Below are positions 6,583 to 22,856 of a stretch of 27,759 nt of DNA, piece by piece. This stretch comes from Planctomycetota bacterium (GTDB lineage: Bacteria; Planctomycetota; SZUA-567; H5-PLA8): NCBI GenBank assembly GCA_035628505.1, contig DASPJR010000027.1:1-27759 (forward strand), read 5' to 3'. Each line of letters starts with the position of its first letter. The first letter of the stretch is position 1. The notes beneath the pieces are model-generated. The model was not told where the DNA came from. It saw only the letters and a list, made by a program, of their open reading frames with translations, and ran no database searches. The position numbers and the translations under genes were made by a program.

Positions 6583-7545
6583 ATGAATAACGATGACGTT
6601 ACACTTCAGGAATTGATCGTCCGCGCGCTCACCGGCCGCGACCATGGCGCGCGCAGCACGCTAGAGGCCGCCGCCGCGGGCGATCCGGAACTCATGCGTT
6701 TCTGCGCGGAACTCGAAGACGTCGTCAGCATGCTGCATGGCTCGCCCGACTGGCGCGCCGCCGCACCGAGCGCAGAACTCACCGCAAAAATCCGCCAGGC
6801 TGTCGTCTCGAAGCTCCCGGCCGCGCCTCCGCACTTCCGCACAGTGATGCTTGAAGCCGACCTGGGCCGCCGCCGTGCGACGCGCAACCTGGTCATCATC
6901 TCGCTGCTCCTGATCGTTGCGCTGATCGCGGCGATTGCCTCGTGGCCCAAGCCGAAAAGCGAAGGCGAACGCCTGAAGCTCAGCGGAAAACTTCTGAGCG
7001 AAGCCGCGTTGAAGGCCGGCGAGCCGCTCAGTGCGTGGACGTTTGCGCGCGAGGAGAAATGGGAAATCCGCGGAGAAGGCCTGCACAGTTCAGGCGGTGA
7101 AGACGCCGGCGCGGCGTTCCTGAAAGAAGCGCTCAGCGCAGACGCCGCGCTGGCGATGAATGTGGACGTTCACGTGCCGGAGCTGGGTGACCGTTCGAAT
7201 GTCACGATTTTCCTGACCGATGCCGAAGGCGAAACAGGCCCGTCGTTTGATGCCGCATCCCGTCCCCGTTCGGCACTGGCGCTGGAGATCGCCGCAGACG
7301 GCCTGGTTCTGAACGGCCCGGGCCGCTCGCTGCTGCACTCCAAGCCCGACAGCAACGCAGACGGCCGCTTTTACCGCATCCGCATGGAATACCTGGGCCG
7401 CTTCGCGCGCGTGCTGATCAACAACGAGACGTTTTTTGATGGTCCCATCCCCCAGCCCATGCGTGGGCCGCTCTATGCCGGCGTCCGCGTCGCCGGGCCG
7501 AAGAAGAACGATATTTTCTTCAACACTGTCCGCCTTGAGCGGTAA
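6583..7545 (+). CDS. Putative anti-sigma factor. Cytoplasmic N-domain, a single TM helix and an extracytoplasmic C-terminal domain of roughly 200 aa.
   Basis: Lies directly downstream of the ECF sigma gene. TM helix NLVIISLLLIVALIAAIASW. Start taken at ATG 6583, since the ORF-track start at 6538 precedes a plausible MNNDDVTLQEL N-terminus. Confidence 0.55.
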   Translation: MNNDDVTLQELIVRALTGRDHGARSTLEAAAAGDPELMRFCAELEDVVSMLHGSPDWRAAAPSAELTAKIRQAVVSKLPAAPPHFRTVMLEADLGRRRATRNLVIISLLLIVALIAAIASWPKPKSEGERLKLSGKLLSEAALKAGEPLSAWTFAREEKWEIRGEGLHSSGGEDAGAAFLKEALSADAALAMNVDVHVPELGDRSNVTIFLTDAEGETGPSFDAASRPRSALALEIAADGLVLNGPGRSLLHSKPDSNADGRFYRIRMEYLGRFARVLINNETFFDGPIPQPMRGPLYAGVRVAGPKKNDIFFNTVRLER

Positions 7546-7605: not shown

Positions 7606-8643
7606 ATGAGCGCAGAAGCGGCGAAGACAGAAACCGGCGGAGCGACGAAGGATGAGCTCGCCCTTGCGGAGAAACTCGCCGAGGCGCGCGACGTTCTCTC
7701 CGAGGAAGTTCACAAGCTGATCGTCGGCCAGGACGAAGTGATCGAGCAGCTTCTGCTGGCTGTCTTCTGCAAGGGCCACTGCCTGATGGTTGGCGTACCC
7801 GGCCTTGCGAAAACCGCGCTGGTCAACACGCTGGGCAAAGCGCTGAGCCTGAAATTTTCGCGTATTCAATTCACGCCAGACTTGATGCCCAGCGACATCA
7901 CCGGCACGGATATCATCCAGGAAGATCCCGAGACCGGCCGCCGGCGCAACGAATTCCTCCCCGGACCAATTTTCAATAACCTGGTCCTGGCTGACGAAAT
8001 CAACCGCACACCGCCCAAGACGCAGGCCGCGCTGCTCGAAGCGATGCAGGAACACCGCGTCACCATCGGCTCAAAAACATACAAGCTGCCCGAGCCCTTT
8101 TTCGTTCTCGCGACACAAAACCCAATCGAGCAGGAAGGCACCTACCCCCTGCCGGAAGCGCAGCTGGACCGCTTCATGTTCCTGGTGAAAGTGGGCTATC
8201 CGACGCGCGAAGATGAAATCGACATCATGCGCCGCACCACGAGCGCCTATAGCGCCAAGGTCGCGCCCGTCTTCAGCGGAGAAGAGCTCAGCGGTTTGCA
8301 GGAAATCGTCCGCAAGGTCCCGGTCGCCGACCACGTCTACGCGTTCGCCGTGGACCTGGTTCGCGCCACGCGCATCTCCGAAGACTACGCCGCGCCCGAA
8401 GTAAAACGCTGGCTCGACTGGGGCGCCGGCCCGCGCGCGTCGCAGTACCTGCTGCTCGGCGCCAAGGCTCGCGCGCTGCTGCACGGACGCTTCCACGCGA
8501 CCGTCGACGACATCATCGCGATCGCCAAGCCGGTTCTGCGTCACCGCATGGTCCTGAACTTCGCGGCCGAGAGCGAAGGGCTGACGACCGATCTCATCAT
8601 TGAAAAGCTTCTCGAAAACGTCCAGGCCGCCTCGAAGAAATAA
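7606..8643 (+). CDS. moxR: MoxR-family AAA+ ATPase.
   Basis: Walker A GVPGLAKT. Sensor/arginine-finger region typical of MoxR ([17 protein letters not shown]; Walker [25 protein letters not shown]). Upstream SD ggag. Confidence 0.9.
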
Positions 8644-8688
8644 ATTCGTTGTGTCTTCGAGTCTTCGTGTTGAAGAAAGACGCCGCAA

Positions 8689-9582
8689 ATGCCTGAAGCC
8701 CGCGAACTGATTGACGACCGTGCCATGCAGCGCATCAGCAAGCTGCGTCTGGTGGCGCGCACCGTCGTTCAAAGCTTCATCTCCGGCCAGCACCGCAGCG
8801 TCTACAAGGGCTTCAGCGTCGAATTCGCGCAGCATCGCCAGTACGTGCGCGGCGACGAACTGCGCCACATCGACTGGAAAGTCTTCGCCAAAAGCGACCG
8901 CATCTTCGTCAAGCAGTACGAAGAAGAAACAAATCTGCGCGCCACAATCGTTCTCGATGCCAGCGGAAGCATGCTCTATAAGGGTGCAGGCGAGCAGAAA
9001 TTCGAGTACGCGCGCAAGCTCGCCGCTGCGTTGAGCTACCTGATGGTCGGCCAGTGCGACTCGGCCGGGTTGGTCACGTTCGACACCGAGGTCCGCTCGC
9101 ACATTCCCGCGCGCTCCACCAGTGGCCATCTCAACACGCTGCTGAACGTGCTCTCTGAAACCGAGCCGCGCGGCGAAACGAACCTGGCGCCGATCCTGCA
9201 GAACCTCAGTGCGCAGCTCAAGCGCCGCGGACTGGTGATCATTCTTTCTGATTTCTTCGCGCCGGTCGAAGAACTCACCAAGGCTCTGGGCCATTTTCAC
9301 CACAAGCGCCATGAAGTGATCCTGTTTCAGATCCTCGATCCGAACGAAGTCACGTTCCCGTTCGACAATGTCGCCGAGTTCCGCAGCCTCGAGAACAGCA
9401 ATATCAAGCTGCGCCTCGACGCGCCGCGCGTGCGCAAGCTGTACCTGGAACGGCTCGAAAAATTCACGCAGAAGCTTCGCGAGTCCTGCCACCGCTTTCA
9501 TTACGACCACGTCATGCTGCAGACCGACAGCCCGTATGACGCCGCGCTCAGCCACTATCTCATGAAGAGGCACGAGCGATGA
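8689..9582 (+). CDS. DUF58-family protein (vWA-like), the usual MoxR partner.
   Basis: YKGFSVEFAQHRQYVRGDELRHIDWKVFAKSDRIFVKQYEEE is the DUF58 signature. Sits 45 nt after moxR. Confidence 0.85.
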   Translation: MPEARELIDDRAMQRISKLRLVARTVVQSFISGQHRSVYKGFSVEFAQHRQYVRGDELRHIDWKVFAKSDRIFVKQYEEETNLRATIVLDASGSMLYKGAGEQKFEYARKLAAALSYLMVGQCDSAGLVTFDTEVRSHIPARSTSGHLNTLLNVLSETEPRGETNLAPILQNLSAQLKRRGLVIILSDFFAPVEELTKALGHFHHKRHEVILFQILDPNEVTFPFDNVAEFRSLENSNIKLRLDAPRVRKLYLERLEKFTQKLRESCHRFHYDHVMLQTDSPYDAALSHYLMKRHER

Positions 9583-9608
9583 ACCCGCGCGCGCGAGGAA
9601 ACAGCTGA

Positions 9609-11831
9609 ATGGTATTCCTCAACCTCCTGCTCGCCGGCGGTCTGCTCGCTGTCAGCGCGCCGATCATCATCCACCTGCTGCACCGCAGCAAGGTGATGCC
9701 CTACGACTGGGGCGCGATGATGTTCCTGGAAGAGCTCATGGCCGAGCGCGCGCGGCGGCTGCGCATGCAGGAGATCCTGCTGCTGATCGTGCGCGCGCTG
9801 ATCGTTGCCTGTCTCGCCTTCGCACTGATGCGCCCTGCAATCAAGTCGCCGACCGCCGGCGTGCGCTCAGCCGATACGCACACCAGCGCCGTCGTTTTGC
9901 TGGACGATTCCTACTCCATGAACACCGGACACAACCGCAAAGCCTGGCAGGACGCCTGCGACGCGGCGATTAAGTACATCGGCACGCTGCAGAGCGGCGA
10001 TGACGTCTCGGTGATGTTCACCTCGTCGGCCGGAAAAGTTCCGCCGCCCGCAGCGCTGTACGATCACGAACGCGCGCGCGAAATCATCCGCAAGGCCACG
10101 CCACAATACGATAAGACAGATATTCCGCGCGCGCTCTCCGCCGCGCTGCAGCAGCTCGACAGCCAGCACAATCCGCGCCGCGAACTGGTCCTGTTTACCG
10201 ACATGCAGGCCAGCGGATGGGAACTGGCCGACGGCGCGCGCTGGTCGTTCATTGCTGGAACAGTGCGCTCGGCGCGCGTGCGGCCGAACATTATTCTCGC
10301 GGCCACGCCCGAGCTCAAACCGAACAACCTGGCGCTGCTGAAAATCGAACCCTCGCGGCAGGTTGTAGACAGCTTCACGCCCGTCACGTTCAACGTCACG
10401 GTCGCGAATGAAAGCCCCGAGGCCATGCGCGACGCAACGGTAACGTTCATCGTCGACAACGTCGCCAAAGCCACGCGTTCCGTCAAACTCGATCCGGGCG
10501 GACGCGAAGTCGTTGCCTTCGAACATAAATTTGAGCGGCCGGGCTCGCATTATGTCGCCTGCCGCGCACGTTCCTCACAGGACATGCTGGAAGACGATAA
10601 CGAGCTCAATCACAGCGTTGTGGTGATCGACCGCTTGCCGGTGCTGCTCGTCGACGGCGACAAGAAAGACAGGCCGCTGGGCAGCGAGACCGATTTTCTG
10701 CGGCTGGCTCTTTCGCCGCGAGACCGTGACGATCCCAACTGGCGCACCGTTATTGATACTACCGTGATCGACAGCACCGACCTGCGCTATACCGATCTTT
10801 CGAAATTCCGCGTCGTCGTGCTGGCCAATGTCGCTGCACTGCCTGCGGCCGCCGTTTCAGAAATTGAACGCTTTGTCGTCGCGGGCGGCGGTCTGATGAT
10901 CGCGCTCGGCAATAATATACGGCCTGATGCTTACAACCGTGATCTGTTCCGGCAGGGAGCGGGGCTGCTTCCGGTTGCACTGAAGCGGATTGAAGGGGCA
11001 ACGCTGCAGAATGAAAGCTCCGGCGCCGTGCGCCTGGTCGCAGCGGGTTCGTCCGCGCCAAAGCCGGCGCAGCAGGGCCCCGATCCCGTGCATCTGGCCA
11101 GCATCGTCTCCAACGCGCCGGCACTCGATCTCTTCCGCCCGGAAAAGGGGCAGGACTGGTCGCGCGCGCGCGTGCGCAGCTATTTCTCTGTCGCGGCGCC
11201 CGGTGACGGCGTTCGCGCGCTTGCCGCATTTTCGAATGGCGATCCGGTGCTGCTGCAGAAGCGCCTGGGCGAGGGCCGCGTGCTGCTCTTTACCTCGGCG
11301 ATAGACATGGACTGGTCAGATCTGCCCATTCACCCCTTCTATGTGCCGCTCATGCAGAATCTCGTCTTTGATCTGGCTTCTGCCGTTATCCCGCCGCGCA
11401 ATGTTCCCGTCGGGCAAACCATCGCCTACGTCGCCACGGGGCCGAATGCGCTCAAGCCGCACATCCTGATTCCGCCGGGCGGCGAACCGATCACGCTGAA
11501 GACGCAGCGCCAGGGGCAGCTTTCGATCTTCACGCACGAAAACACAAAGACGCCCGGGCTTTACTCGATTGCTCCCGAAGGCGCGCCGCCGGACGAGCGT
11601 GTGTTTTACACCGTGACGGCTGACCGTTCGGACTCCGTGCTCGACCGTCTTGAGCGCGAAGACACCGAAAAACTAGAGCGCGATCTGGGCGCGCACATCG
11701 CCTCGGACTGGAGCGCCATGGCGAGGCTGCTGATGCTGGACGCCGGGAGCTTTGAAATCTCGAAGTATCTATTGATGGCGGCAATCGTCTTCTGCTTCGT
11801 TGAAATCTGGCTCACGCGGAGGTGGGCATGA
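9609..11831 (+). CDS. BatA-like membrane protein: N-terminal double-TM BatA_N domain, vWA domain, GATase1-like/DUF4159-like domain and a C-terminal TM.
   Basis: MVFLNLLLAGGLLAVSAPIIIHLLHRSK is the BatA N-terminal motif. vWA MIDAS motif VVLLDDSYSMN. VVVLANVAALP...FVVAGGGLMIALGN resembles a class-I amidotransferase-like fold. SD gagga upstream. Confidence 0.8.
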   Translation: MVFLNLLLAGGLLAVSAPIIIHLLHRSKVMPYDWGAMMFLEELMAERARRLRMQEILLLIVRALIVACLAFALMRPAIKSPTAGVRSADTHTSAVVLLDDSYSMNTGHNRKAWQDACDAAIKYIGTLQSGDDVSVMFTSSAGKVPPPAALYDHERAREIIRKATPQYDKTDIPRALSAALQQLDSQHNPRRELVLFTDMQASGWELADGARWSFIAGTVRSARVRPNIILAATPELKPNNLALLKIEPSRQVVDSFTPVTFNVTVANESPEAMRDATVTFIVDNVAKATRSVKLDPGGREVVAFEHKFERPGSHYVACRARSSQDMLEDDNELNHSVVVIDRLPVLLVDGDKKDRPLGSETDFLRLALSPRDRDDPNWRTVIDTTVIDSTDLRYTDLSKFRVVVLANVAALPAAAVSEIERFVVAGGGLMIALGNNIRPDAYNRDLFRQGAGLLPVALKRIEGATLQNESSGAVRLVAAGSSAPKPAQQGPDPVHLASIVSNAPALDLFRPEKGQDWSRARVRSYFSVAAPGDGVRALAAFSNGDPVLLQKRLGEGRVLLFTSAIDMDWSDLPIHPFYVPLMQNLVFDLASAVIPPRNVPVGQTIAYVATGPNALKPHILIPPGGEPITLKTQRQGQLSIFTHENTKTPGLYSIAPEGAPPDERVFYTVTADRSDSVLDRLEREDTEKLERDLGAHIASDWSAMARLLMLDAGSFEISKYLLMAAIVFCFVEIWLTRRWA

Positions 11832-14632
11832 GCGACTCAACGGTGGGCAATGCCGTCAACCTTGTCCTGACCGGCTACGCCTGGTGGCTGATGATTCCCG
11901 CATCGGCCGTGCTTGGCGTGCTGATCGCTCGGCTTTACATGAAGGAGACAGAAGGCTTCGGCAACGGCGGAATGTGGCTGCGCATGCTGCGTGCGGCCGT
12001 GGTGGTGATCCTGGTGTTGCTGCTCTCGCAACCTATTATTCACCGTGTGACAGCGCTGCACGAACCGCCTGTCGTGATCGTGCTGCGCGACCAGTCGACG
12101 AGCATGAGCGTCAAAGATACGCACGAGCCGATCGAGAAGAAAGTTCGCGCCGCAGTGGTGCTTGGCCTGCTCGATGGCAAACTTCGCGATCTTAATGCCG
12201 AGAACGCCGTGACATCCCTGACGTCGGCACTCACAGCGCTCGAGTCCGCAACAGGGGGCGTGCGGCAGGCAATGCAGCAGCTGCAGGAAAGCGGCGAAAG
12301 TTCAGCGGGCATCCAGGAGCGCCTGACGCAGGCGCGAAAGTACCTTTCCACTCTTGCTGCCGAATCGCGCAAGGCCGCCGATCTTCTCGCAGCGGCGCCG
12401 CTGGTTCAGCCGCATCAGAAACCCGCCGCCCTGAAAGCCGCCGAAATGGCCGCGGCTCTGGACAAGGACCTGAGCGAGGTTCCGCTGAAAAATGCGGACG
12501 CGCGCAAGTTCCTCATGGATAAGAGCCAGTCGCTTAAAGCACTCAAGCAGGATCTCACCCGCGTCACCGCCGATGCGCGCAAGCTGCAGGATCGCGTCGA
12601 TCGGGCGCTGGGCGAAAGCGGCAAGCAGCCGGTCAAGACTGCCATTGAAGCGATCGATAAGATGGACCGCATCACCTTCACGACGGCCATTCTGGACAAG
12701 TCCACGACGGAGCTTGGCGGCGAGCAGGCCCGGATCGTCAGCTACAATATTGATACGGATCTGCGCAGCCCGGACGGAAAATTTCTCGAACGCGAACCGG
12801 ACAAGAACGAGAGCAAGGACGCGAAGCCTGAAAAGCGCACCGACGCGCGCCAGACGCGCGCAGATACGGACCTCGCAACGCCGCTGCTTCGCCTGCTTGA
12901 AAAACACGCGCACGACACGGTCACATCTATTGTCCTCTGCAGCGACGGCCGCCACACCAGCGGACCGGCGCCAGAAGACGCCGCACGCGCCATCGCGGCG
13001 CGCGGCATCACCCTGCACTCGCTGGGAGTTGGCAGCACGGAAGCGCCGCCGGATATCTGCGTCGCACGCCTGGACGGCACGCTCTCGGTGTTCCTTGAAG
13101 AAACCATTCGCCTCACCGCGCAGATCAAATGCACGGGCTTGAAGAATCAGAAGTGTAAGCTCGCGCTGAAGTCGGGCGACAAAACGATCCAGGAACGCGT
13201 GCTCGCCATCGGTTCTGACGGCTGGCTCACCGAAACATTTGAGCTCACCGCAACGAAGAGCGGGCCCAATGCGTTCACGGCATCGATTGAACCACTGCCG
13301 GGCGAGGCGCTCACGACAAACAACAGCGCCGATGCCGTTGTCGATGTCGCCAACGACCGGCTGAAAGTCCTGGTTGTCGATGAACTTCCGCGCTGGGAAA
13401 CGCGTTATGTCGCCAGCCTCCTGCGCCGCGAGCGCAAAATGGAACTGAAAGAACGCTGGCTGATCAGCGGCGACGGAATGGGCCCACGGCCAAAGGCTCT
13501 GCCGGAAGAACAGAAAGGACTGGAAGAATACGACATCATTGTGCTGGGCGACGTAATGGCAGAACGGCTCGACGATGCCGCGCAGAAGCGCCTCGCGCGC
13601 TATGTCGCGGACAACGGCGGCTTTTTGGTCGTCATCGCCGGAAATAAAGCCATGCCGCGCGCGTACCCAAGTGGTCCGCTCGCCGATCTGCTGCCGATCA
13701 AGCAGCAACTCACGACCGGCGCTGCGGCAATGCTGACAGCCGATGCCACCGCCGGCGCGCGCGTGAAACTCGACGCGGACGGCAGCCGCAGCGAGATCGT
13801 ACGCGTTCTGCGTGATCCGGCGCTGAACGAGCAGCTCTGGCCGGCGCTTCCGGAACTGACCTGGATTGCGCGGCCCGCTTTCGCAAAGCCAGGCGCGACG
13901 ACGCTCCTTTATGCCGACGACGCGCGAAAGGATGCGGTCGTCGCCGTGCACAGCTACGGCGCGGGGCGTGTGCTTTATATCGGATCGGACAACACCTGGC
14001 GCTGGCGCTATAAAGTTGGCGACCGCGTGCACGCTGTCTTCTGGTCGCAGGCAATGCGCTGGGGTACCAGCAACCGCCTGACCGGCAATCCGCGGCTGAA
14101 AGTCGGGCTCGACCGCCGCCAGATCCGCCCCGGAGAGAACCTCGAAGTAATTGCGCGGCCGCGCGACAGGGCGGGCGCAGCCGTCGCCAATGCATTGGTC
14201 ATTGCCGAGCTCGAAGACCGCACGCGCCAGCAGCACGTTCAGCTTCAGCCGGTGGCCGACAGCGGCGGGCTGTACCGCGGTGTGCTGCAGAACATCGGCG
14301 CCGGCGTGCACTCGATCAAGATCAAAGTTCAGTCCCCCGACTTCGAAGGCATCGAAGAAACCCTGCAGGTCATTTCGCGCGAAGTGACCGGCCAGGAAGG
14401 CGTGGAACTTTCACGGGATACGGCGCGGCTCGCATCCCTGGCGCAGGCCGGCTCCGGCCGCAGCCTTGATATCCTGGAAGCGCGTCAGCTCTTCAAAGAA
14501 CTCGCCGGCCAGGGAAAGATCCGCACGGTCGAGTCCTCTTACGAACTATGGTCGTCGTACTGGGCGCTGCTGCTCGTGGTGGCGCTGCTGGCTGCCGAGT
14601 GGCTCCTGCGCAAAAAGATGGGCATGGCCTGA
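11828..14632 (+). CDS. Second BatA_N-type membrane protein (BatB-like). N-terminal double TM, a long coiled/extended region, a vWA-like segment (IVLCSDGRHTSG) and a GATase1-like domain (YDIIVLGDV...GGFLVVIAGN).
   Basis: ATG at 11828 overlaps the upstream stop (ATGA). SD ggaggtgg at 11816-11823. 935 aa. Confidence 0.7.
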   Translation: MSDSTVGNAVNLVLTGYAWWLMIPASAVLGVLIARLYMKETEGFGNGGMWLRMLRAAVVVILVLLLSQPIIHRVTALHEPPVVIVLRDQSTSMSVKDTHEPIEKKVRAAVVLGLLDGKLRDLNAENAVTSLTSALTALESATGGVRQAMQQLQESGESSAGIQERLTQARKYLSTLAAESRKAADLLAAAPLVQPHQKPAALKAAEMAAALDKDLSEVPLKNADARKFLMDKSQSLKALKQDLTRVTADARKLQDRVDRALGESGKQPVKTAIEAIDKMDRITFTTAILDKSTTELGGEQARIVSYNIDTDLRSPDGKFLEREPDKNESKDAKPEKRTDARQTRADTDLATPLLRLLEKHAHDTVTSIVLCSDGRHTSGPAPEDAARAIAARGITLHSLGVGSTEAPPDICVARLDGTLSVFLEETIRLTAQIKCTGLKNQKCKLALKSGDKTIQERVLAIGSDGWLTETFELTATKSGPNAFTASIEPLPGEALTTNNSADAVVDVANDRLKVLVVDELPRWETRYVASLLRRERKMELKERWLISGDGMGPRPKALPEEQKGLEEYDIIVLGDVMAERLDDAAQKRLARYVADNGGFLVVIAGNKAMPRAYPSGPLADLLPIKQQLTTGAAAMLTADATAGARVKLDADGSRSEIVRVLRDPALNEQLWPALPELTWIARPAFAKPGATTLLYADDARKDAVVAVHSYGAGRVLYIGSDNTWRWRYKVGDRVHAVFWSQAMRWGTSNRLTGNPRLKVGLDRRQIRPGENLEVIARPRDRAGAAVANALVIAELEDRTRQQHVQLQPVADSGGLYRGVLQNIGAGVHSIKIKVQSPDFEGIEETLQVISREVTGQEGVELSRDTARLASLAQAGSGRSLDILEARQLFKELAGQGKIRTVESSYELWSSYWALLLVVALLAAEWLLRKKMGMA

Positions 14633-14708
14633 AGCGGCAGCGATTTCAGTCAACGGCAGTTCCGCATAGCGGTAGAAGCAGGCAGCACAAGGGGCTGGTT
14701 CAACGACG

Positions 14709-17700
14709 ATGAGCGAACCGGAAATTCTCGAAGAGGAGGCGCCGCCGGTACTGGAAGTCCCGGCTCCGGTCGCCAGCGCTCTGCAGCGCTTCGCCGACGA
14801 GACGCGCCGTCTGGCCATTCGCGAGTGCTTTGCCTGGGCAGCGGTCATCCTGATCGGGCTCTTTACGCTGCTGGCGTTTGCCGATTTCCTGCAGCTCTTC
14901 GGCGATGGCGCCCGCAAGACCCTCGCAGTTCTGTTTTACGCAATTGTTGCAGGCATCACGGGATTTCTCCTGTCGCGCGCACTGCGGCGCCGCACTCCAA
15001 CCGAAATCGCACTGGCTCTTGAGGAGCGCGTGCCGGACGGGGCACTGGAGGAACGCGTCTCAACGACCGTCGAGCTGGCTGAACGGTATGCGTCAGGAAC
15101 CGTACAGGACGACGAAGGCGTATCGGACGCCCTGATCTCACGCGTGGCCGACGAGGCCGCGGTGCTGATCGAGCGCATTAATGTCGAAGAACTCACCGAC
15201 CGCACAGGCTCCCGGCGCTCCGCGCGGGCGGCACTGGCGTCCTTCGCCGTGGCGGTACTGCTTTGTCTCATTCCCGTTCTGCATATGCCCGTGCTTTACG
15301 CCCGCGCATTTTTTCCCTGGCAGAAGCTGCAGCGGCCAAGCGAAACGCTGATCGCCGTGCTGCCGGGAGATTCGCGCATCGTTGAGGGCGCGCCGTTAAA
15401 AATTGAGGCGCGTCTGAGCGGCAAGCTCGTTAAAGAGGCCGCGGTCGAAATGCGCGATCACAACAGCTCGGCCTGGGTCTCGACAGAAATGAAGGCCGAT
15501 CCTACTTCGCCCGAGCGCTTTGAATTAACGCTGTCCTCTGTCCGCGCGCAGGCCGACTACCGCATTCGCGCCGGTGACGGATTGACAGCCGAGTACCACA
15601 TCCAGGTGCTGCCGCGCCCGGAGATCACCGGCCTGAAGATGGTGGTAACCTACCCCGTCTACGCCAACAAACCGCCGGAAACGTTCGAACGCATCAGCGG
15701 CGACCTGTCGGTGCTGAAGGGTTCGAAAGTGCAACTGAGTGTCACATCGAACACGGATCTTTCAGCCGCAGTCATCGAGTTTTCAAACGACCGCCGCGTC
15801 TCGATGTCACTGGGGCAGAAGTCGGCCTCGGCGTCCTTTGATATCACGGAAGACAGCCAATACCGAATCCAGCTTCGCTCGACGGATGGCGTGAGCAATC
15901 CCGATGCGCCGCTGTTTGCCATTCACGCCGTTCCGGACAAGGCGCCGCAGGTCGCCGTGCACAGCCCGGGCTCTGATGATGCGACAGATCCGGCTACGCT
16001 GCTGAACCTGGAAACGCGCGCGGAGGACGATTTCGGAATCACCTCCATGCGGCTGGTCGTGAAGACCGAACAGCGCGCAAAGCCCGTGACGGTTCAGCTG
16101 CAGAAACCCGAAGATGCCGGCAAGGTCTGGCTCGTTTCACAACCCTGGGACCTCGCCGGGCTTTTCTTGAAAGATGGCGAAATTGTCACGTACCGCGTCG
16201 AAGCGGTAGACACGTCGGGCTCGGTGGGCAAGAGCGATGAGCGGCGGCTGCGCATCGAAAGCGGTCAGAAACATCCCTCTGTCAAAGTGCTGTCTGAACT
16301 GGAAAGAGTGCAGAAGCACGTCGATGGCGCGCACCGGCTGCTGACAACGGCTCGGAACGACATCGCCGAAATGCGCCAACTGTTCCGCCCTGAAGACGTT
16401 GAATATCAGGCCGCTGAGCGCCTGCTGCTTGAAGAGACGCTGCGCCGCATCCGCCGGGAGACGCAGAGCGCGTCGGCGCTGCTGGAAGCCGTCACGCCTG
16501 ATGCGGAAACTGGATCGATGCGCACGCTGGTACAGGCGCTGACAAACGCGCTGGCGCGCTTCAGTTCCACTGAACTCCATCCGCTGCAGAGCAACGCCAC
16601 GCGCGCGCGCTCCAATGGCAGCGCCGCGGTCGCCGCGGGCCTTGAAGTGCTGATGGTCCAGGCGCCGAAAGTGGAAGAGCGGCTGAACATGCTGCATGAG
16701 GCGCTCACCGCCGCCCACCGGTACGCCGGAGCAACGGTGCTGAACGAGCGCGCTGAGGATATTCGCAAATCGCAGAAGAAGATTTCGCCGATACTCCTCG
16801 GCGCTGCGGCGTGGAGCCCGAAGGGCAACTTCACACCGGGTCTTGCGGCTGAATACTACAGGGGCACAAATTTCGAGCAGCTCGTGCGCCGCACGGTCGA
16901 GAACAATCTGGATCTGAAGAACCAGGATCTCCCCGACGTGGGCCGCGAGAATTTTACAGTCCGCTGGAAAGGACAGGTGCTCGCCCCGCGCGCCGGCCGC
17001 TACACCTTCCGTGCCACGGCCGATGACGGCGTGCGCCTGACCGTCGCTGGAAAGAAGCTCATCGATGAATGGCGCATGCAGGCCGCGACGCCGTTCGAAG
17101 CGGCGATCGAGCTTAAAGAAGGCTGGAGCGACATTGTTCTGGAGTTCTTGCAGGGCTCGGGCGGCTATGAGCTCAACCTCGTTCGCTCCGGGCCGAAGAT
17201 TGCAACCGCGCCTATTCCGCCCGAGCACCTCCGCACCACCGGTACGACCATTGCCGTGAATCCAGACACAGTCAAAGCCGCCATGGTTGAGAGCGCCAGC
17301 GACGCCGCCGTTCAGCAGTCGCTCGTGCGCCTGCAGACGATGCTGCAGGCTTCGCAGCAGCTTGCGCCCGAATACACGCGCCTGAGCAAGCTTCCTCCCA
17401 CAGCCGACGAGGAAGGCGTGAAGCAGAGCGCCGAGTGGGGCCGCGAACTGATCAAGAACGTCGGCGAACTCGTCGGCGTCAAGACACTGTCGCCCGGACT
17501 GGCCGTTCCACTCATGCAATGGCAGGAACACACGCGCGGAATCGATCATCGTTACCGTGAACTGCGCGCGCGCTACAAGGCGAAGGTCGACGAATGGGCA
17601 AAGAAATTCGCTGCGGATATTTTCGAAGCCACGGCAAAACTCAAAGATCTTCAGCAGAATGCCGAGAACGCGCGCAAGGCTTTCGAGACGCTCATCCAGG

Positions 17701-20700
17701 CATCCAAGCAGCCGAAAGACGAAAAGCGCGAAGCAGCGATGCAGCAGGCCGACGCGATGGTGCGTTCCATGGCCGAGGATCTGCAGACGCAGGCCAAGGA
17801 GATTGCCGCGGAATTCGCCAAGGCAGCCGAGGACGTCAACCGCCCACTCGACGAACGCCGCATCCTCAAAGCGCTCGAGCACAAAGCTGAAATGATGGCG
17901 CTTGAGCCCGCCGGCACACTGGCCAAGCGGCTTGAAGACGCAAAGACGCCGGAGGAACTGGCGAAGACGGAGCAGAAGGTTCCGAACTTCGGAACGAAGG
18001 CCGCCGAGCTGAGCCAGAAAGCCGCCGCGCTGGCACAGGCGACGGAAAAGATGGAACGCGCCGTGGCGCTGCGTGAAGCACTCGAGGAGCTTGCGGAGAC
18101 TGAGCAGGAAGCCCGCGAGGCGCTCGCCGAAGCACCCACGGCAGAGAATGCCGCCAAACAGCAGGAGGCCGCGGCGGAATTGAAGGAGCAGGCCGCGGAG
18201 CTCAAGCACGCCGTCGAGCTGGCGCGCAACAACGTTGACAACAACACGCTGAACCAGGCAGCGCAGCTCGCCGATCGGGCGCTTGCAACCAATGCTGCCG
18301 ATCTTCTGAAAAAGCGCGCGGAACAGGCGCTTGCGGGGGAGCTTGATCCGAAGAAAGATTCCGCGAACGCTCCGGCTCGAAAGGCTGCAGACAAAGATCT
18401 GGCTGAGCAGGCAAAGAAAGCGTCTGAGACCGCAGCCGCTATCAATAAAGAATTAGCGCAGCAGGCCGCGCAGCTCAATGGCGATGTTGCCAACACGCTG
18501 CGTGAAGCCGCGAAAGATCTGCAGGCCAGCTCACAGGCACTCGAAGCCGCCAAGCAGCCGGCCGAGGCTGCCGCGGCGCTTGACCGGGCCGCCGACAAGG
18601 CGATCGAAGCGCAGGCTGAAGCGGCCAATGCCGCCGAGCAGATCGCGCTGAACGCCGAGGCCATGCGCCGCGCCGCGAAGACGGACGCGGAACGCGCGCG
18701 CGCCGATGATATGGTGCGCCTGGCTGCAGCCATTCACAACGAAGTGGAAAAGCAGATCGCGCCACTGGCCGAGCAGCTTGATCGCGCGGAGAAGAACCCC
18801 GATGCCGTCCCCGTGCCGGCTGACGCGCAGGAGCAGGGAAAGAACGAAGCCGCAAAGCTGAACAAGCTCGCCGACATCGCCGCGCAGTTGCAGTCGCCAG
18901 ACGCCAACCAGCAGAAGGCAGCGCACGACGCGATCAATAAGGTGCTCGCCGAGCAAGGCGCGGCCAAGGACGTCGAAGAAGCGCTCAAGCAGGCGCAAGC
19001 GCTCGAGACGGCGGCGGAGCATCTCGAGAAAGCCGAAGCTGCCGCGGCAGCAGGCGCGGAGGCCAAGACCGGTGAAAAGGGCGCTGACAAAGCCGGCGAA
19101 AAAGCCGGAGAGAAGGGCGGCGAGAAAGGCGCAGACGCCGCCGCGAAGCAGGAAGCGGAATTGAAAGCCGCCGAGGCGGCGCTCGCTGAAGCGGTGAAAG
19201 CCGATGCTGCCGAGGCAGGGAAAGAGGCGCTCGCCGAAAGGCTGGGCGAGATGGCCGGTGAGCTGCGCCAGCAAGCCGAGGAACAGCGGCAACTGGCAAA
19301 TCACCTCAACCAGGCGGCTGGGCTCGAGCAGCAGGCGCGCGAGAACCTGAAGAAGGAGGCCCCTGCCCTCGCCCAGTCACTGCGCGACGCACAGAAGAAT
19401 GCGGCCAACGCGGCCAAGGGAAAAGCTCCTGACATCGCGCAGCCGCTCAATAATGCGCAGCAGGGATTGGCGAAGTCCGCCGAAGCATTGCAGGCTGAAG
19501 CTGCAAAGGCAGACGGAACTCCGCTGGAGCAGCTTGCGGCAGATCTTGAAAAAATTGCCAAGGACATCGAGGCGCCCATCGGCGAGCTTGCCGCGGCGCT
19601 GAATAAGGGCGCTGAAGGAACGCAGGATATCCAGCGCGCCGGACGCGAAGCGCGAAATGCCGCCGGACGCGCAAAGGAACTTGCCGCTGAGATGCAACGC
19701 GCCGAACGCGCAGCGGATCTGGCCGCAGCCGAGGCGCAGGAAGCCCAGGGCGAGCGGGCCGATCTGGAAGCGCAGGTCAAGGCAGCGATTGCTGCGCTTG
19801 AAAATCAGGGCGGCGCGCCCGAAGCGGAATTGGCGGCGCTGAAAAAGGCTGCTGCATCCGGCGAGCCGAAGAGCGCTCAGGGAAATCCCGAGGGAGGAGA
19901 AAAACAGGCGCAAAGCGGAGCGCAGAAAGGCGAAGCGTCCGCCCAGAATCCGAAAAGCGGACAGAATCTACAAAGCGGGCAGAATCCACAAAGCGGGCAG
20001 AACCCGCAAAGCGCCCAGAACGCGCAGAATCCAGGGCAAAATGCCCAGCACGGTCAAACTCCGCAGAGTGCTCAGAATCCCCAGAGCGGCCAAAATCCGC
20101 AGAGCGGCCAGAATGCCCAAAGCGGGCAGAAGAGTGCTCAAAGCGGACAGAGCGGACAGAAGCCCTCCTCTGCTGCGGCTGGCGAGCCTACGCAGGAATC
20201 CATGCAACTCGAAGCCGAGCGCGCGCGCGCCGACAGCGAACGCCTGCAGCAGATGGCCGCGCAGATGGAAAAAATCGCTGCATCGCTGAGCCCGGCCGGC
20301 GCGCAATCGTCGCAGAAGCCTGCATCGGACAAGGCCAGTACCACACCTGCGGCCGATGCGCTTGAAGCAGTCGAAGACGCCAAGGCAGCGCTGGCGACCG
20401 GCGATAAAGCCGGCGCGGCCGAAGCGATCAATGAAGCGCAGGAATTTCTTGAGCAGGCTGCCGAGGCCGCTCGCGCGGAAGCGACTGGAATGAAAACGCC
20501 GGGCAAGTCGGAAGCCGAAGCGCTCGCCGACGGCGAACCGAGCCCCAAGAGCAAAGGCACGGGACAAGGCAAGAGCCAGGCGCAGGGACAGGGCCAGGGC
20601 AAGACGCCCGCGCAGAAAGCCGCTGCCCAGCAGTCCAAAGGCGCGCTCGCTCCCGAACCGCCGGCTGGAATTCCGATCGACAAGGCCACGTGGAACCGCC

Positions 20701-20822
20701 TGCCCGACAATCTGCGGCGCGATCTGCTGAACGCGGCCGGCGGGCGCTTTCCGGCGGAATACGAAAGCAGCATCAAGCGTTACTTCAAAAACGTGGCCTC
20801 GACCAAGGATGAGAAACGCTGA
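14709..20822 (+). CDS. Giant 2037-aa protein. Two N-terminal TM helices, beta-rich Ig-like regions, a PA14 domain (about nt 16821-17213) and then about 1000 residues of Ala/Glu/Lys/Gln-rich coiled coil with low-complexity repeats.
   Basis: PA14 signature YYRGTNF...FTVRWKGQVLAPRAGRYTFRATADDGVRLTVAGKKLIDEW. N-terminal hydrophobic helices at residues about 40-90. C-terminal half is continuous heptad-like AEAAKLNK/AELKA sequence. Confidence 0.75.
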   Translation: MSEPEILEEEAPPVLEVPAPVASALQRFADETRRLAIRECFAWAAVILIGLFTLLAFADFLQLFGDGARKTLAVLFYAIVAGITGFLLSRALRRRTPTEIALALEERVPDGALEERVSTTVELAERYASGTVQDDEGVSDALISRVADEAAVLIERINVEELTDRTGSRRSARAALASFAVAVLLCLIPVLHMPVLYARAFFPWQKLQRPSETLIAVLPGDSRIVEGAPLKIEARLSGKLVKEAAVEMRDHNSSAWVSTEMKADPTSPERFELTLSSVRAQADYRIRAGDGLTAEYHIQVLPRPEITGLKMVVTYPVYANKPPETFERISGDLSVLKGSKVQLSVTSNTDLSAAVIEFSNDRRVSMSLGQKSASASFDITEDSQYRIQLRSTDGVSNPDAPLFAIHAVPDKAPQVAVHSPGSDDATDPATLLNLETRAEDDFGITSMRLVVKTEQRAKPVTVQLQKPEDAGKVWLVSQPWDLAGLFLKDGEIVTYRVEAVDTSGSVGKSDERRLRIESGQKHPSVKVLSELERVQKHVDGAHRLLTTARNDIAEMRQLFRPEDVEYQAAERLLLEETLRRIRRETQSASALLEAVTPDAETGSMRTLVQALTNALARFSSTELHPLQSNATRARSNGSAAVAAGLEVLMVQAPKVEERLNMLHEALTAAHRYAGATVLNERAEDIRKSQKKISPILLGAAAWSPKGNFTPGLAAEYYRGTNFEQLVRRTVENNLDLKNQDLPDVGRENFTVRWKGQVLAPRAGRYTFRATADDGVRLTVAGKKLIDEWRMQAATPFEAAIELKEGWSDIVLEFLQGSGGYELNLVRSGPKIATAPIPPEHLRTTGTTIAVNPDTVKAAMVESASDAAVQQSLVRLQTMLQASQQLAPEYTRLSKLPPTADEEGVKQSAEWGRELIKNVGELVGVKTLSPGLAVPLMQWQEHTRGIDHRYRELRARYKAKVDEWAKKFAADIFEATAKLKDLQQNAENARKAFETLIQASKQPKDEKREAAMQQADAMVRSMAEDLQTQAKEIAAEFAKAAEDVNRPLDERRILKALEHKAEMMALEPAGTLAKRLEDAKTPEELAKTEQKVPNFGTKAAELSQKAAALAQATEKMERAVALREALEELAETEQEAREALAEAPTAENAAKQQEAAAELKEQAAELKHAVELARNNVDNNTLNQAAQLADRALATNAADLLKKRAEQALAGELDPKKDSANAPARKAADKDLAEQAKKASETAAAINKELAQQAAQLNGDVANTLREAAKDLQASSQALEAAKQPAEAAAALDRAADKAIEAQAEAANAAEQIALNAEAMRRAAKTDAERARADDMVRLAAAIHNEVEKQIAPLAEQLDRAEKNPDAVPVPADAQEQGKNEAAKLNKLADIAAQLQSPDANQQKAAHDAINKVLAEQGAAKDVEEALKQAQALETAAEHLEKAEAAAAAGAEAKTGEKGADKAGEKAGEKGGEKGADAAAKQEAELKAAEAALAEAVKADAAEAGKEALAERLGEMAGELRQQAEEQRQLANHLNQAAGLEQQARENLKKEAPALAQSLRDAQKNAANAAKGKAPDIAQPLNNAQQGLAKSAEALQAEAAKADGTPLEQLAADLEKIAKDIEAPIGELAAALNKGAEGTQDIQRAGREARNAAGRAKELAAEMQRAERAADLAAAEAQEAQGERADLEAQVKAAIAALENQGGAPEAELAALKKAAASGEPKSAQGNPEGGEKQAQSGAQKGEASAQNPKSGQNLQSGQNPQSGQNPQSAQNAQNPGQNAQHGQTPQSAQNPQSGQNPQSGQNAQSGQKSAQSGQSGQKPSSAAAGEPTQESMQLEAERARADSERLQQMAAQMEKIAASLSPAGAQSSQKPASDKASTTPAADALEAVEDAKAALATGDKAGAAEAINEAQEFLEQAAEAARAEATGMKTPGKSEAEALADGEPSPKSKGTGQGKSQAQGQGQGKTPAQKAAAQQSKGALAPEPPAGIPIDKATWNRLPDNLRRDLLNAAGGRFPAEYESSIKRYFKNVASTKDEKR
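19941..20165. repeat. In-frame degenerate 21-nt tandem repeat inside the giant gene, encoding about 12 copies of the heptapeptide QSGQNPQ.
   Basis: Example unit cagagcgggcagaatccacaaagcgggcagaacccgcaaagcgcccagaac. Protein reads ...QNPKSGQNLQSGQNPQSGQNPQSAQNAQNPGQNAQHGQTPQSAQNPQSGQNPQSGQNAQSGQ... Confidence 0.85.
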
Positions 20823-21898
20823 TGAAAACGCATTGGCTCAGCTTTGTCATCACAGCGAGTTTTCTCGGCTGCGCAGCGCTAGGGGGTGACAAGCCCGTCG
20901 CCCGCGCGGCAACGGCGGCCGAAGACGAGGCAGCCATTCTGCGCAAGTTGCAGGACCGCGGCCCGCGCGACGCGGCGATCGAGAAGGCCGTCAACTTCCT
21001 GATTTCCACACAGAACAAGGACGGCAGCTTTGGCGAGAAACACAAGAATGCGCTCACGGGGCTGACCGTGATGGCGCTGATGGCGGCCGGCCATACGCCT
21101 GACTCTCCGCAGAATGGGCCCAAGATCCGCAACGCGCTCAACTTTATTCTTTCCCAGATGCGCAATGACGGGTACCTGGGGCACAGCGACCATTCGCGCA
21201 TGTACGGCCATGGAATCTGCACGCTGATGCTCACCGAAGCGGCGGGCATGACACGCGATGATGCACTTGAAAAACGGCTGATCGATGCCTGCCGCCGCGC
21301 CGTGGAGCTGATCCTGAAAGCACAGGCCGTGAAAAAGCAGGGGCATCACAATGGCGGCTGGCGCTACGAACCCAATAGCGGCGATAGTGATCTGTCGCTC
21401 ACCGGCTGGCAGACCATGTCGCTGCGCTCAGCTAAAAATATCGGCATCGATGTTCCGGGCACCGCGATTACGGCTGCAACCAACTACATCCGCGCGATGG
21501 CGCGCGATGGCGAGTTCTCTTACGAAGGCGGCGGCGGCCAGCCGACGTTGCGCGGAATCGGCCTGCTGGCGTTGCCTGTCTGCGGAGTATACGACGCGCC
21601 GGAGCTGGCAAAGGCGACGGCGAATATGCTGAAAGACCCGCCGAAGTGGCAGGGCCCCTGGTTCTATTACCGCCTTTATTACTCCACGATGGGCATGTAC
21701 CAGATGGGCGACGAGGCCTGGAACCGTTTCCATCCCATCGTCGACGACGTTTTGCTCAAGCAGCAGAAACCCGACGGAAGCTGGCCTGATCCTCCAGGGA
21801 ATAACGAGCAGGAGGCCGGCGGCGCGATCTATTCGACCAGCATGGCGATCCTTGTGCTCGCGGTGCACTATCATTTGCTTCCAATTTATCAGCGTTGA
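20822..21898 (+). CDS. Secreted or lipid-anchored prenyltransferase / squalene-oxidase-repeat (terpenoid-cyclase-like alpha/alpha-toroid) protein.
   Basis: Signal peptide MKTHWLSFVITASFLGCAALGG. Repeats GGWRY..., DGSFGEKHKNALTGLTVMALMAAG and KPDGSWPDPPG are typical of the PTase/SQCY repeat fold. Start overlaps the giant gene stop (TGATG). Confidence 0.75.
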   Translation: MKTHWLSFVITASFLGCAALGGDKPVARAATAAEDEAAILRKLQDRGPRDAAIEKAVNFLISTQNKDGSFGEKHKNALTGLTVMALMAAGHTPDSPQNGPKIRNALNFILSQMRNDGYLGHSDHSRMYGHGICTLMLTEAAGMTRDDALEKRLIDACRRAVELILKAQAVKKQGHHNGGWRYEPNSGDSDLSLTGWQTMSLRSAKNIGIDVPGTAITAATNYIRAMARDGEFSYEGGGGQPTLRGIGLLALPVCGVYDAPELAKATANMLKDPPKWQGPWFYYRLYYSTMGMYQMGDEAWNRFHPIVDDVLLKQQKPDGSWPDPPGNNEQEAGGAIYSTSMAILVLAVHYHLLPIYQR

Positions 21899-22056
21899 GA
21901 GTTTGCAAAAAAAGTTTTACGCCCTGTTTGCAGCGGAAGCGCATCGCCGCGGCTTCACTTTTTAGCCGCTGCCACGTACTCGCCGAAATTTCGTAAGCAG
22001 CAACTGGAAAAAGCAGAGCCCGCTTTAGATCCAGAAATTTTCTGCGCCTCAAAAAT

Positions 22057-22085
22057 TTGACATCCTGGAAACCAGGTGGTTAGTT
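22057..22085 (+). promoter_or_regulatory. Sigma70-like promoter candidate: -35 TTGACA at 22057-22062, a 17-nt spacer, and a weak -10 ttagtt at 22080-22085.
   Basis: Perfect -35 hexamer preceded by an A-tract (aaaaat). Located about 160 nt after the toroid gene stop. Confidence 0.4.
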
Positions 22086-22089
22086 CGTA

Positions 22090-22339
22090 ACACAGTTAGT
22101 TAGGAGAGTAGCAATTCGATGAACTGGGTCATGGCACAAATAAGCGGACATACACAGTACCTGTCCTATGCGGATCAGCGGACGGGTATCGTCGTATCGT
22201 TTAGTTTGCCGTGCCTCGGTCGTAAAGCTGAAAACAATCTGAACGCCCCCGAGACCGGGAGGCCCGCACCCTAGAAGGTTGAGTTCATGTGGAGATTCCA
22301 CAAACCTTCCAGGGTGCAAGCTCTGGAAGGTTTTTTTTT
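22090..22339 (+). ncRNA. Candidate small RNA of about 250 nt with unassigned family. Relatively AT-rich and ends at an intrinsic terminator.
   Basis: No ORF of at least 60 aa on the plus strand here (track minimum). Bounded by a promoter-like site and by terminator ccttccag-ggtgcaagct-ctggaagg followed by T8 (22304-22339). GC content is visibly lower than the flanking DNA. Confidence 0.4.
22304..22339 (+). terminator. Rho-independent terminator. 8-bp GC-rich stem CCTTCCAG/CTGGAAGG, a 10-nt loop, then TTTTTTTT.
   Basis: Perfect inverted repeat 22305-22312 / 22323-22330, followed by a T8 run at 22331-22338. Confidence 0.75.
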
Positions 22340-22500
22340 ACCCGAGCGAAAAGGAGTTCAACATGCAGGTACGTGCTGACTAAACAGTAGTTCCTGATTT
22401 CGACTCGCGATGAAACGTGAAAACGCAGCGACTGGCGTTGCCGCGAGAGGAGTGTTGTTGTCACTTTTCTAAGGAGGTTCATGCAGTCGCCGTTCGGTTT

Positions 22501-22574: not shown

Positions 22575-22634
22575 AGCTCAGCTTCACTCACCGGGGAGAC
22601 GCGGAGGCGCTGAGAACAGATTGGAAAAGTTCGG

Positions 22635-22705: not shown

Positions 22706-22712
22706 AACAGAT

Positions 22713-22740: not shown

Positions 22741-22777
22741 CACCCAGACTCAAGACTCCCGACTCATGACTATTGTT

Positions 22778-22848: not shown

Positions 22849-22856
22849 TGTGAAGT

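Follow-up and report, generated by a model that had tools for sequence, protein, structure and literature searches.

A Bat/Mxa-like MoxR-vWA operon linked to a giant DUF4175 protein and an exported toroid protein in Planctomycetota and Verrucomicrobiota

Gene content of the operon

We examined a 27,759-nt stretch of DNA (hereafter the window; contig DASPJR010000027.1) from a metagenome-assembled genome (MAG) of Planctomycetota, and within it a run of six same-strand genes. These encode a MoxR AAA+ ATPase, a DUF58 protein, two membrane proteins with vWA domains (genes 3 and 4), a giant protein of the DUF4175 family, and a protein with an alpha-alpha toroid fold (Table 1). Cassettes of the MoxR-vWA or Bat type are already known as a kind; this one carries in addition a giant-toroid pair, its presumptive payload, which is conserved across the lineage. 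An initial annotation made from the sequence alone had placed the six genes at these positions with these domains, and the list of open reading frames (ORFs) and the Pfam searches both agree with it. It had also described the genes as translationally coupled, through an ATGA overlap, a TGATG overlap and gaps of 26-76 nt, and this can be read directly in the sequence. The stop codon of gene 3 overlaps the start of gene 4 in gcATGAgc (11828-11831), with a GTG at 11822 as a possible alternative start for gene 4, and the stop of the giant gene overlaps the start of the toroid gene in cgcTGATGaaa (20820-20824). The remaining gaps measure 45 nt (MoxR to DUF58), 26 nt and 76 nt. Long minus-strand ORFs lie antisense to the operon at 8071-9573, 12302-14311 and 16137-18209, and we treated them as shadow ORFs of GC-rich coding sequence. 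As a whole the initial annotation is partly supported: it was broadly right, with the corrections that the cassette is only partially Bat-like, that the giant belongs to DUF4175, and that the toroid is not a cyclase.

Table 1. Positions in the window of the operon, the upstream sigma pair and the downstream hairpin (values after domain names are E values)
Feature	Coordinates	Strand	Details
Gene 1, MoxR AAA+ ATPase	7606-8643	+	345 aa; predicted cytoplasmic; AAA_3 2.6e-62
Gene 2, DUF58 protein	8689-9582	+	297 aa; DUF58 2.5e-47
Gene 3, BatA-type membrane protein	9609-11831	+	740 aa; BatA-N 2.3e-13
Gene 4, second bitopic vWA membrane protein	11828-14632	+	934 aa; DUF7408 2.2e-8
Gene 5, giant DUF4175-family protein	14709-20822	+	2037 aa; PA14 6.8e-16, DUF4175 5.6e-14
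Gene 6, toroid protein	20822-21898	+	358 aa; SQHop_cyclase_C 1.1e-7
ECF-type sigma factor	5841-6497	+	218 aa; Sigma70_r2 5.6e-17, Sigma70_r4_2 7.5e-15
Putative anti-sigma factor	6538-7545	+	335 aa; NCBIfam anti-sigma match weak, 0.0049
Intrinsic-terminator-like hairpin	22302-22343	+	14-bp stem and T-run; top site in terminator scan

Linkage of the six genes across genomes and metagenomes

The initial annotation had tied the giant and the toroid to the MoxR cassette. We ran the corresponding synteny check, and the linkage is kept across phyla, so that the two are not chance neighbours. The close relatives comprised nine genome loci from Planctomycetota MAGs, in which gene 4 is 49-64% identical (a seven-sequence alignment of gene 4 that reached one clade); the distant loci were found through toroid homologues at 42-46% identity; and a metagenome scan seeded with the toroid gave 80 loci, whose six-frame ORFs were profile-searched and 70 of which were informative. 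Individual loci are given below by L numbers.

The anti-sigma factor, MoxR, DUF58, BatA and gene 4 occur in the same order at all nine close loci. The giant and toroid follow at the five that extend far enough (L001, L003, L005, L006 and L009), and three others are cut by contig ends. At the distant loci the run from BatA to the toroid recurs: a Verrucomicrobiota chromosome (L010) carries BatA (723 aa), proteins of 922 and 1752 aa and the toroid, a Pirellulales MAG (L014) carries BatA, proteins of 850 and 1885 aa and the toroid, and the GC162 Planctomycetes MAG (L013) carries BatA, a 1108-aa protein with a PA14 domain, a 2177-aa protein and the toroid. By tblastn, the large proteins of the distant loci are homologous to genes 3, 4 and 5 at 24-30% identity. 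Two more loci were reached through giant homologues: L097 has BatA, proteins of 795 and 1478 aa and the toroid, and the distant L098 (GC 0.71) shows the complete MoxR-DUF58-BatA-vWA-giant-toroid order. A lone toroid paralogue was found at L011. All source names of the toroid homologues are Planctomycetota or Verrucomicrobiota.

In the metagenome set, a DUF4175 giant ends at the start of the toroid gene at 51 of the 70 informative loci, while MoxR directly adjoins the toroid without a giant at six, and neither a giant nor an adjacent MoxR was found at 13. Where enough upstream sequence was available (26 loci), gene 4 lies upstream of the giant at 20, together with BatA and DUF58 where these could be reached, and is missing there at six. 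The giant-toroid pair is thus the tightest link, and it is usually, not always, joined to the cassette. At the six loci with MoxR next to the toroid, toroid paralogues stand in two further gene orders, as a Pfam check showed. The first runs from a protein with two vWA domains and GATase1_like through MoxR to the toroid, in some cases with a BamB-like propeller. It is found at L029, L031, L037 (856-7974) and L047, where the first protein has 1030-1180 aa, the toroid paralogue overlaps the stop codon of MoxR, and DUF58, the BatA-N protein and the giant are all missing. The second order, toroid-MoxR-DUF58-BatA-gene 4, is found at L053 (8408-11404) and L055 (4688-10698), and both contigs end before the stretch in which a giant could follow. 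A linkage that survives rearrangement in this way argues for function.

Propeller proteins recur near toroid genes. A PQQ_2/BamB-like beta-propeller follows the toroid paralogue at L037, L045 (9830-12463) contains a toroid-propeller pair without MoxR, and FG-GAP propeller proteins flank the toroid genes at L011 and L014.

MoxR, DUF58 and the two vWA membrane proteins

The AAA_3 match of the first protein spans the full profile and is joined by AAA_lid_2 (2.9e-16, Pfam), and both the Walker A (GVPGLAKT) and Walker B (LADEINR) motifs are intact in the translation. Its identity is 82-88% in the close relatives and 61-65% at the distant loci. DUF58 proteins are the usual partners of MoxR. The one encoded here has a vWA-like fold (VWA_2, 1.3e-12) with the DxSxS motif of a metal ion-dependent adhesion site (MIDAS), LDASGSM, and is predicted to be cytoplasmic, as a hydropathy scan found no transmembrane (TM) segment in it.

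Gene 3 was recognised as BatA-type by TIGR02226 (1.6e-17, NCBIfam) as well as by the Pfam match in Table 1, with further Pfam matches to VWA_2 (5e-12) and CARDB (3.7e-5). An N-terminal double-TM domain is followed by a vWA domain (MIDAS motif DDSYS), a CARDB/Ig region and a GATase1-like domain, and one more TM helix closes the protein at its C terminus. The hydropathy scan places the helices at residues 6-24, 56-74 and 713-731, with a loop rich in Lys and Arg at 25-55. The topology of another BatA-type protein, BB0173, has been determined experimentally, and its vWA domain is periplasmic (PMC5700661). Given this and the positive-inside rule, the vWA/CARDB/GATase1-like body of gene 3 is predicted to be periplasmic.

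The initial annotation had counted gene 4 as a second BatA-like protein. Its architecture is indeed BatA-like, with TM helices at 16-34, 53-71 and 909-927 that give it the same topology as gene 3, but it has no match to BatA-N or TIGR02226 even at E<=10, and it resembles gene 3 in the GATase1-like part only. A helical insert of about 250 aa splits its vWA domain; after this come Ig-like domains, a GATase1-like domain (DUF7408) and the C-terminal TM helix. Pfam detected VWA only weakly in addition to DUF7408, and a profile search against the PDB returned the GATase1-like structure 3rht (5e-10) and the vWA domains 4rck, BatB 3ibs (8e-4) and BatA 4jdu (0.016). The MIDAS residues are invariant in the alignment columns (D88/S90/S92 of DxSxS, T347 and D373), and MIDAS motifs are intact in all three vWA proteins, namely DUF58, gene 3 and gene 4. 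At L013 (123-3449) the PA14 domain lies in the gene 4 homologue and not in the giant, so that PA14 changes place among the components of the system.

The giant DUF4175 protein

The giant is a bona fide member of DUF4175, not an orphan, as judged from its sequence: the match to PF13779 at residues 311-590 scores 51.6 bits against a gathering cut-off of 27.3. It is, however, greatly expanded. From the hydropathy scan, it begins with a TM hairpin (helices 40-58 and 71-89), a conserved helical domain of about 85 residues (~90-174) that is predicted to be cytoplasmic, and a third TM helix at 175-193. An AlphaFold2 model has a predicted local distance difference test score (pLDDT) of about 90 over residues 20-520 and shows three beta-sandwich domains of Ig-like type at 214-516, then long helices packed into a bundle at 523-689, all predicted to be periplasmic. 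Foldseek matched this model to generic tandem Ig, FN3 and macroglobulin (MG) folds only. We rejected a relationship to alpha2-macroglobulin, as the Foldseek matches to the MG domains of C3 reflect generic tandem beta-sandwiches with TM scores of about 0.1. A PA14 domain follows at 710-794, and its nearest relative is the PA14 domain (6qe7) of the anti-sigma factor RsgI3.

The initial annotation had called the giant a coiled coil, and this holds for part of the protein. Residues ~1000-1700 contain 27-35% Ala and 50-70% Ala, Glu, Lys or Gln, and within 1201-1700 hydrophobicity recurs with a period of 3.5 residues (z = 6.7-7.6 relative to shuffled sequences), which makes a heptad-type helical rod plausible there. 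Residues 1700-2000, on the other hand, are of low complexity and rich in Gln, Gly, Ser and Pro, including ten copies of the repeat SGQNPQ. The last ~45 residues carry the conserved motif W..LP..LR..L....P.EY...I..YF, which is common to all homologues examined, from Verrucomicrobiota, Pirellulales, Myxococcus and Latescibacteria.

DUF4175 is a large family, with 9,460 clusters at 50% identity in an exhaustive HMMER search (E<=1e-3); this search gave the family size, as a word-indexed search with the N-terminal 860 aa of the giant returned 15 matches and missed full-length orthologues. The DUF4175 protein of Myxococcus stipitatus shares with the giant the N-terminal TM helices, the beta-rich core and the C-terminal P.EY...I..YF. 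The giant, by contrast, is roughly double the length, contains an inserted PA14 domain and a region of 1000 residues rich in Ala, Glu, Lys and Gln, and lies within a MoxR cassette. At L015 (13147-14892) the Myxococcus gene stands alone and overlaps a downstream gene for a protein with tetratricopeptide repeats (TPR) and Peptidase_MA_2 by 4 nt. DUF4175 proteins in general may have a coupled periplasmic partner, which in bacteria of the Planctomycetes-Verrucomicrobia-Chlamydiae (PVC) group would be the toroid. The sole literature lead on the family is the annotation "DUF4175" on the N-terminus of AdvA, an essential division protein of A. baumannii (PMC7481262). About 1 kb past the toroid at L009 (20744-22744) lies a second ORF that matches the N-terminal DUF4175 profile and is cut by the end of the locus.

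The toroid protein

The sixth protein (358 aa) was modelled as a single (alpha/alpha)6 barrel with a pLDDT of 88. It begins with an ordinary Sec signal peptide, as do 24 homologues. We considered that it might be a lipoprotein and rejected this, as Cys17 is not conserved and the orthologues have ordinary Sec signal peptides; a Sec signal peptide without a conserved Cys predicts a soluble periplasmic protein. Together with the topologies predicted for the membrane proteins, the signal peptides back the envelope location that the initial annotation had proposed. At about 45% identity between phyla, the toroid is surpassed in conservation only by MoxR and DUF58 within the operon, and among the four envelope proteins it is by far the most conserved (~45% versus ~25%). 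Its signature motifs are DxSRMYGHG, GGWRYxP...DSDLS and a C-terminal LPIYQR, and its invariant polar and aromatic residues include R126, H130, E139, K172, R181, D190 and several Tyr.

The description of this protein as an exported prenyltransferase/squalene-oxidase toroid stands as far as the fold and the export are concerned, and structurally it is closest to the beta-domains of class II terpene cyclases (squalene-hopene and oxidosqualene cyclases, drimenyl-PP synthase and MstE), although its best structural matches are only 13-17% identical. The single barrel, the missing DxDD and the Sec export show that it is neither enzyme. As a squalene or terpene cyclase it was rejected on three grounds: no DxDD occurs in the 358 aa, the conserved D188-S-D190-L-S lying at an ordinary repeat position; the two-barrel (beta-gamma) architecture is missing; and the TIGR01507 score of 35 bits falls far below the cut-off of 431. 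It was rejected as a prenyltransferase beta subunit because of a Prenyltrans (PF00432) score of 15.8 bits against a cut-off of 26.5. The thioester-containing domain (TED) of alpha2-macroglobulin and C3 was a third candidate, and it was rejected as well: the toroid has no thioester motif CxEQ, none of its four Cys precedes xEQ, the TED_complement profile scores 19 bits against a cut-off of 22, and structural matches to TED domains are weaker than those to cyclases.

Comparison with known MoxR-vWA systems

Bat operons (BatI of Bacteroides fragilis and its homologues in spirochaetes and Flavobacteriia) share with this operon a MoxR gene in first position, DUF58, a BatA-N/vWA membrane protein (PMC5700661, PMC11834572) and a tight same-strand packing of genes. 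The initial annotation had for these reasons spoken of a Bat-type cassette, and this describes the first three genes well. The rest differs. Neither the TPR proteins BatC and BatE nor SH3 or BatD was detected in the six proteins (Pfam, E<=0.01); the second vWA protein has no detectable BatA-N and instead carries a large helical insert together with Ig and GATase1-like domains; the operon has in addition the DUF4175 giant and the exported toroid; and in this clade a sigma/anti-sigma pair of the extracytoplasmic function (ECF) type precedes the operon. With defining accessory proteins of Bat missing, the operon is not a canonical Bat operon.

The second relevant system is Mxa of methylotrophs (MxaR-MxaS-MxaA-MxaC-MxaK-MxaL), in which a cytoplasmic MoxR, a DUF58-type vWA protein and membrane vWA proteins likewise act on a periplasmic target. 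MxaR, S, A, C, K and L are all required for Ca2+ loading of the periplasmic methanol dehydrogenase (MDH), MxaS, MxaC and MxaL are the vWA proteins of the set, and Mxa is the only cassette of the MoxR-vWA type with a defined biochemical output (PMC12276312). The client in that system is a beta-propeller enzyme with pyrroloquinoline quinone (PQQ) encoded in the same cluster, whereas the candidate clients here are the giant and the toroid. Pfam searches found no MDH, MxaJ or MxaK-like genes, and the PQQ_2/BamB-like propeller after the toroid in the metagenome variant is not an MDH. NorQ and NorD illustrate a general principle of remodelling by MoxR-vWA pairs (PMC9976466, PMC13036017).

A third parallel is the MoxR-headed operon RL3499-RL3502 of Rhizobium leguminosarum, which encodes membrane proteins and is reported to matter for the integrity of the membrane and for cell morphology (Vanderlinde 2011, cited in both PMC3893208 and PMC5700661). 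The phenotype class of its MoxR gene RL3499, as cited there, is the one that we would predict for the present operon. By those descriptions, on which the comparison is made, it consists of four genes (MoxR, DUF58 and two membrane proteins), and they mention neither a giant nor a toroid. In the literature searched, we found no paper that links MoxR, DUF58 or BatA with Planctomycetes or with DUF4175, and none that describes the extended operon; the PVC gene-content paper of Kamneva (2012) treats other clusters. Database annotations name the parts separately, as "hypothetical", "PA14 domain-containing" and "prenyltransferase/squalene oxidase repeat-containing".

Proposed function and alternative explanations

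Given the gene content, the predicted topologies and folds, the intact ATPase and MIDAS motifs, and a linkage that is conserved through reshuffling, we lean modestly towards the view that the six genes form one functional unit of PVC bacteria, in which a chaperone cassette of the Bat/Mxa type would be dedicated to a periplasmic payload of giant and toroid. From the analogy with Mxa, NorQ/NorD and RL3499-3502, together with the anatomy of the proteins, we infer the physical contacts, the direction of action and a role in envelope maintenance. A MoxR hexamer and the MIDAS-bearing DUF58 protein would engage the membrane components from the cytoplasmic side, with two candidate docking sites: the K/R-rich loop within BatA's double-TM domain, and the cytoplasmic domain that separates TM2 from TM3 in the giant. 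Genes 3 and 4 are predicted to present their MIDAS vWA, Ig-like and GATase1-like domains on the periplasmic side, and would bind the payload and mature or position it. One part of this payload would be the giant, anchored in the inner membrane and made of an Ig-like stalk, a putative glycan-binding PA14 domain and a helical rod of ~500-700 residues. The other would be the soluble toroid, whose conserved pocket is a likely ligand-binding or catalytic site. The outcome may be the assembly or maintenance of an envelope-spanning structure, in line with the large envelope structure that the initial annotation had suggested, and in this clade the ECF sigma/anti-sigma pair would control it.

Several observations weigh against a dedicated unit of this kind. 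At L004 (12806-18455), opposite-strand genes (242, 485 and 1089 aa) replace the giant and toroid past gene 4. Conversely, giant-toroid pairs stand alone at L012, L034, L046, L049, L050, L072 and L095, so the module is separable; opposite-strand genes lie directly upstream of the pair at L046 and L072, which implies that it forms a two-gene operon there. The distant DUF4175 proteins of Myxococcus, Latescibacteria and L099 are not near any MoxR gene, and since the family is also large, linkage to the cassette appears to be a trait of a PVC-centred subfamily. At the distant loci examined, the sigma factor was not seen beside the cassette, which confines the sigma link to one clade. Finally, deletion of bat in Leptospira gave no phenotype, including under oxidative stress (PMC3557215).

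Few bacterial operons that lack a mechanism are as widespread as the MoxR-DUF58-BatA cassettes, of which the Mxa set alone has a defined output. The PVC variant carries its presumptive substrates, the exported toroid and the DUF4175 giant, in cis, and this narrows the Bat question to whether toroid and giant mature without MoxR and the vWA proteins, and whether they bind the periplasmic MIDAS domains. It also places part of the DUF4175 family, whose sequences form more than 9,000 clusters, in a genomic context, and points to a possible factor in the envelope architecture of bacteria with unusual cell plans. It is tempting, though rather improbable, to go further and envisage a PVC-specific, ATP-serviced apparatus that spans the periplasm. 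In it, the giant would form a membrane-anchored rod of ~75-100 nm, PA14 and the toroid would be a distal head that binds glycan or polyprenoid, and MoxR-DUF58 with the two vWA proteins would act as the motor for assembly or for resetting tension, so that the whole would tether, measure or organise the unusually wide, convoluted periplasm and envelope of Planctomycetota and Verrucomicrobiota. If this were true, the cell plan of PVC bacteria would have a structural determinant in this apparatus, which would also offer the first way into the mechanism of Bat-type cassettes.

An alternative to a dedicated payload-assembly unit is an Mxa-like insertion of cofactors, in which the toroid would be a periplasmic enzyme loaded with a metal or cofactor by MoxR, DUF58, BatA and gene 4, and the giant would serve as scaffold or tether. 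There are precedents for this in MDH (PMC12276312) and NorQD (PMC9976466, PMC13036017). No other non-cytoplasmic component adjoins MoxR as often as the toroid does; this neighbourhood occurs in three gene orders, in some cases with no giant. The toroid's high conservation among the envelope proteins, its many invariant polar and aromatic residues and the three intact MIDAS metal sites would all suit a client enzyme. Against this, the toroid shows no catalytic motif that we could assign to an (alpha/alpha)6 enzyme family, neither DxDD nor CxEQ, and we identified no metal site; the low identity of its best structural matches also counts against an enzyme. The tightest linkage, that of giant and toroid (51/70), is moreover not required by a pure client-enzyme model. 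We consider cofactor insertion unlikely, though it is the main rival.

The operon might instead have the classical Bat function, that is, aerotolerance or protection from oxidative stress, for example through a reduced periplasm as proposed for Bacteroides and Riemerella, with the giant and toroid as lineage accessories. MoxR, DUF58 and the BatA-N/vWA protein are held in common with bat operons; loss of batA lowered the survival of Riemerella under oxidative stress (PMC11834572), and the original aerotolerance phenotype of B. fragilis, as cited in PMC5700661, points the same way. We nonetheless regard this as improbable, given the missing BatC/E and BatD, the lack of any redox domain in the six proteins (Pfam, NCBIfam), PVC-specific components that have structural or binding folds and not redox folds, and the Leptospira deletion noted above, which is at odds with the Riemerella result.

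A role in conflict with phages, which the initial annotation had mentioned in passing, is very improbable. It would cast MoxR and its vWA partners as a defence module with the giant surface protein as sensor or decoy, and it could draw on the conflict roles described for MoxR-vWA ternary systems (PMC7159879), on a secondary match of MoxR to the bpMoxR model (7.3e-13), and on the tRNA array that adjoins the operon in this genome. However, none of the six proteins matches a PADLOC-DB 2.0 model at E<=0.001, Pfam found no effector domain (nuclease, protease or TIR) in them, the array is absent from relatives, and the operon keeps its synteny, with a housekeeping-like context, both across the nine relatives and in other phyla, whereas a defence island would be variable. 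That the giant and toroid merely happen to lie downstream of an ordinary MoxR cassette is hardly credible. Cassette and pair can occur apart (L004, L012, L046 and L072), but the gene order is retained while protein identity falls from 90% to ~25%, and it is seen in at least two phyla and at 20 of the 26 metagenome loci that could be tested. The giant and toroid genes repeatedly share a stop/start overlap, and toroid genes adjoin MoxR independently in other gene orders. Because co-linearity is conserved across phyla and the toroid-MoxR link survives several rearrangements, we take chance adjacency to be excluded.

Upstream regulators and downstream flank

The operon is preceded by the ECF-type sigma factor and the putative anti-sigma factor of Table 1, and the next gene upstream of these is on the opposite strand. 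The hydropathy scan gave the anti-sigma factor one TM helix (118-136), with a predicted periplasmic C-terminal domain of ~200 aa. An orthologue of the sigma factor lies upstream of MoxR at eight of the nine related loci (46-71% identity), and the anti-sigma factor lies between the two at all nine (38-61% identity; at L005 its C-terminal part only). In this clade the conserved unit thus extends beyond the six genes, and the ECF sigma factor is probably the regulator of the operon. By eye, no convincing ECF-type promoter motif shared by the regions upstream of sigma and MoxR was apparent in the aligned intergenic regions, and a scan for sigma-70 promoters gave nothing useful. Anti-sigma/MoxR spacers measure ~40-130 nt in the close clade, with the exception of L005 (554-6925), where ~3.4 kb separate anti-sigma from MoxR and ~2 kb separate MoxR from DUF58; these spacings suggest that genes were inserted into an otherwise compact unit.

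At the other end, synteny reaches no further than the toroid even in the closest relative (L017, whose toroid is 90% identical), and the strong terminator-like hairpin lies ~400 nt past the toroid stop codon. Transcription of the unit probably ends at this hairpin. The spacer before it (21899-22343, plus strand) contains a 51-codon ORF (22119-22274) and a TTGACA box at ~22057, and no Rfam family matched it at the gathering score; it could hold a small gene or small RNA with its own promoter.

Beyond the hairpin lies a dense tRNA array of ~3.3 kb (22501-25781, plus strand), in which ARAGORN found 16 tRNA genes and Rfam 15. It includes the unusual anticodons Ile-tat and Phe-aaa and an embedded ORF for a GNAT acetyltransferase (23479-24072), and the region has a positive GC skew and a lower GC content. 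The array, the GNAT gene and a downstream Band_7 gene are absent past the operon in all relatives checked, including the one with the 90%-identical toroid, so we consider the array unrelated to the operon. We also considered it as a part of the unit or a phage remnant and rejected both, given its absence from relatives and a phage database search that returned only generic single-tRNA matches. Past the array, two ORFs on opposite strands overlap, at 26102-27748 (minus) and 26138-27454 (plus); only the plus-strand ORF has a domain (Band_7/SPFH, 3.8e-36), and the 548-aa minus-strand ORF is therefore probably another GC-rich shadow ORF.

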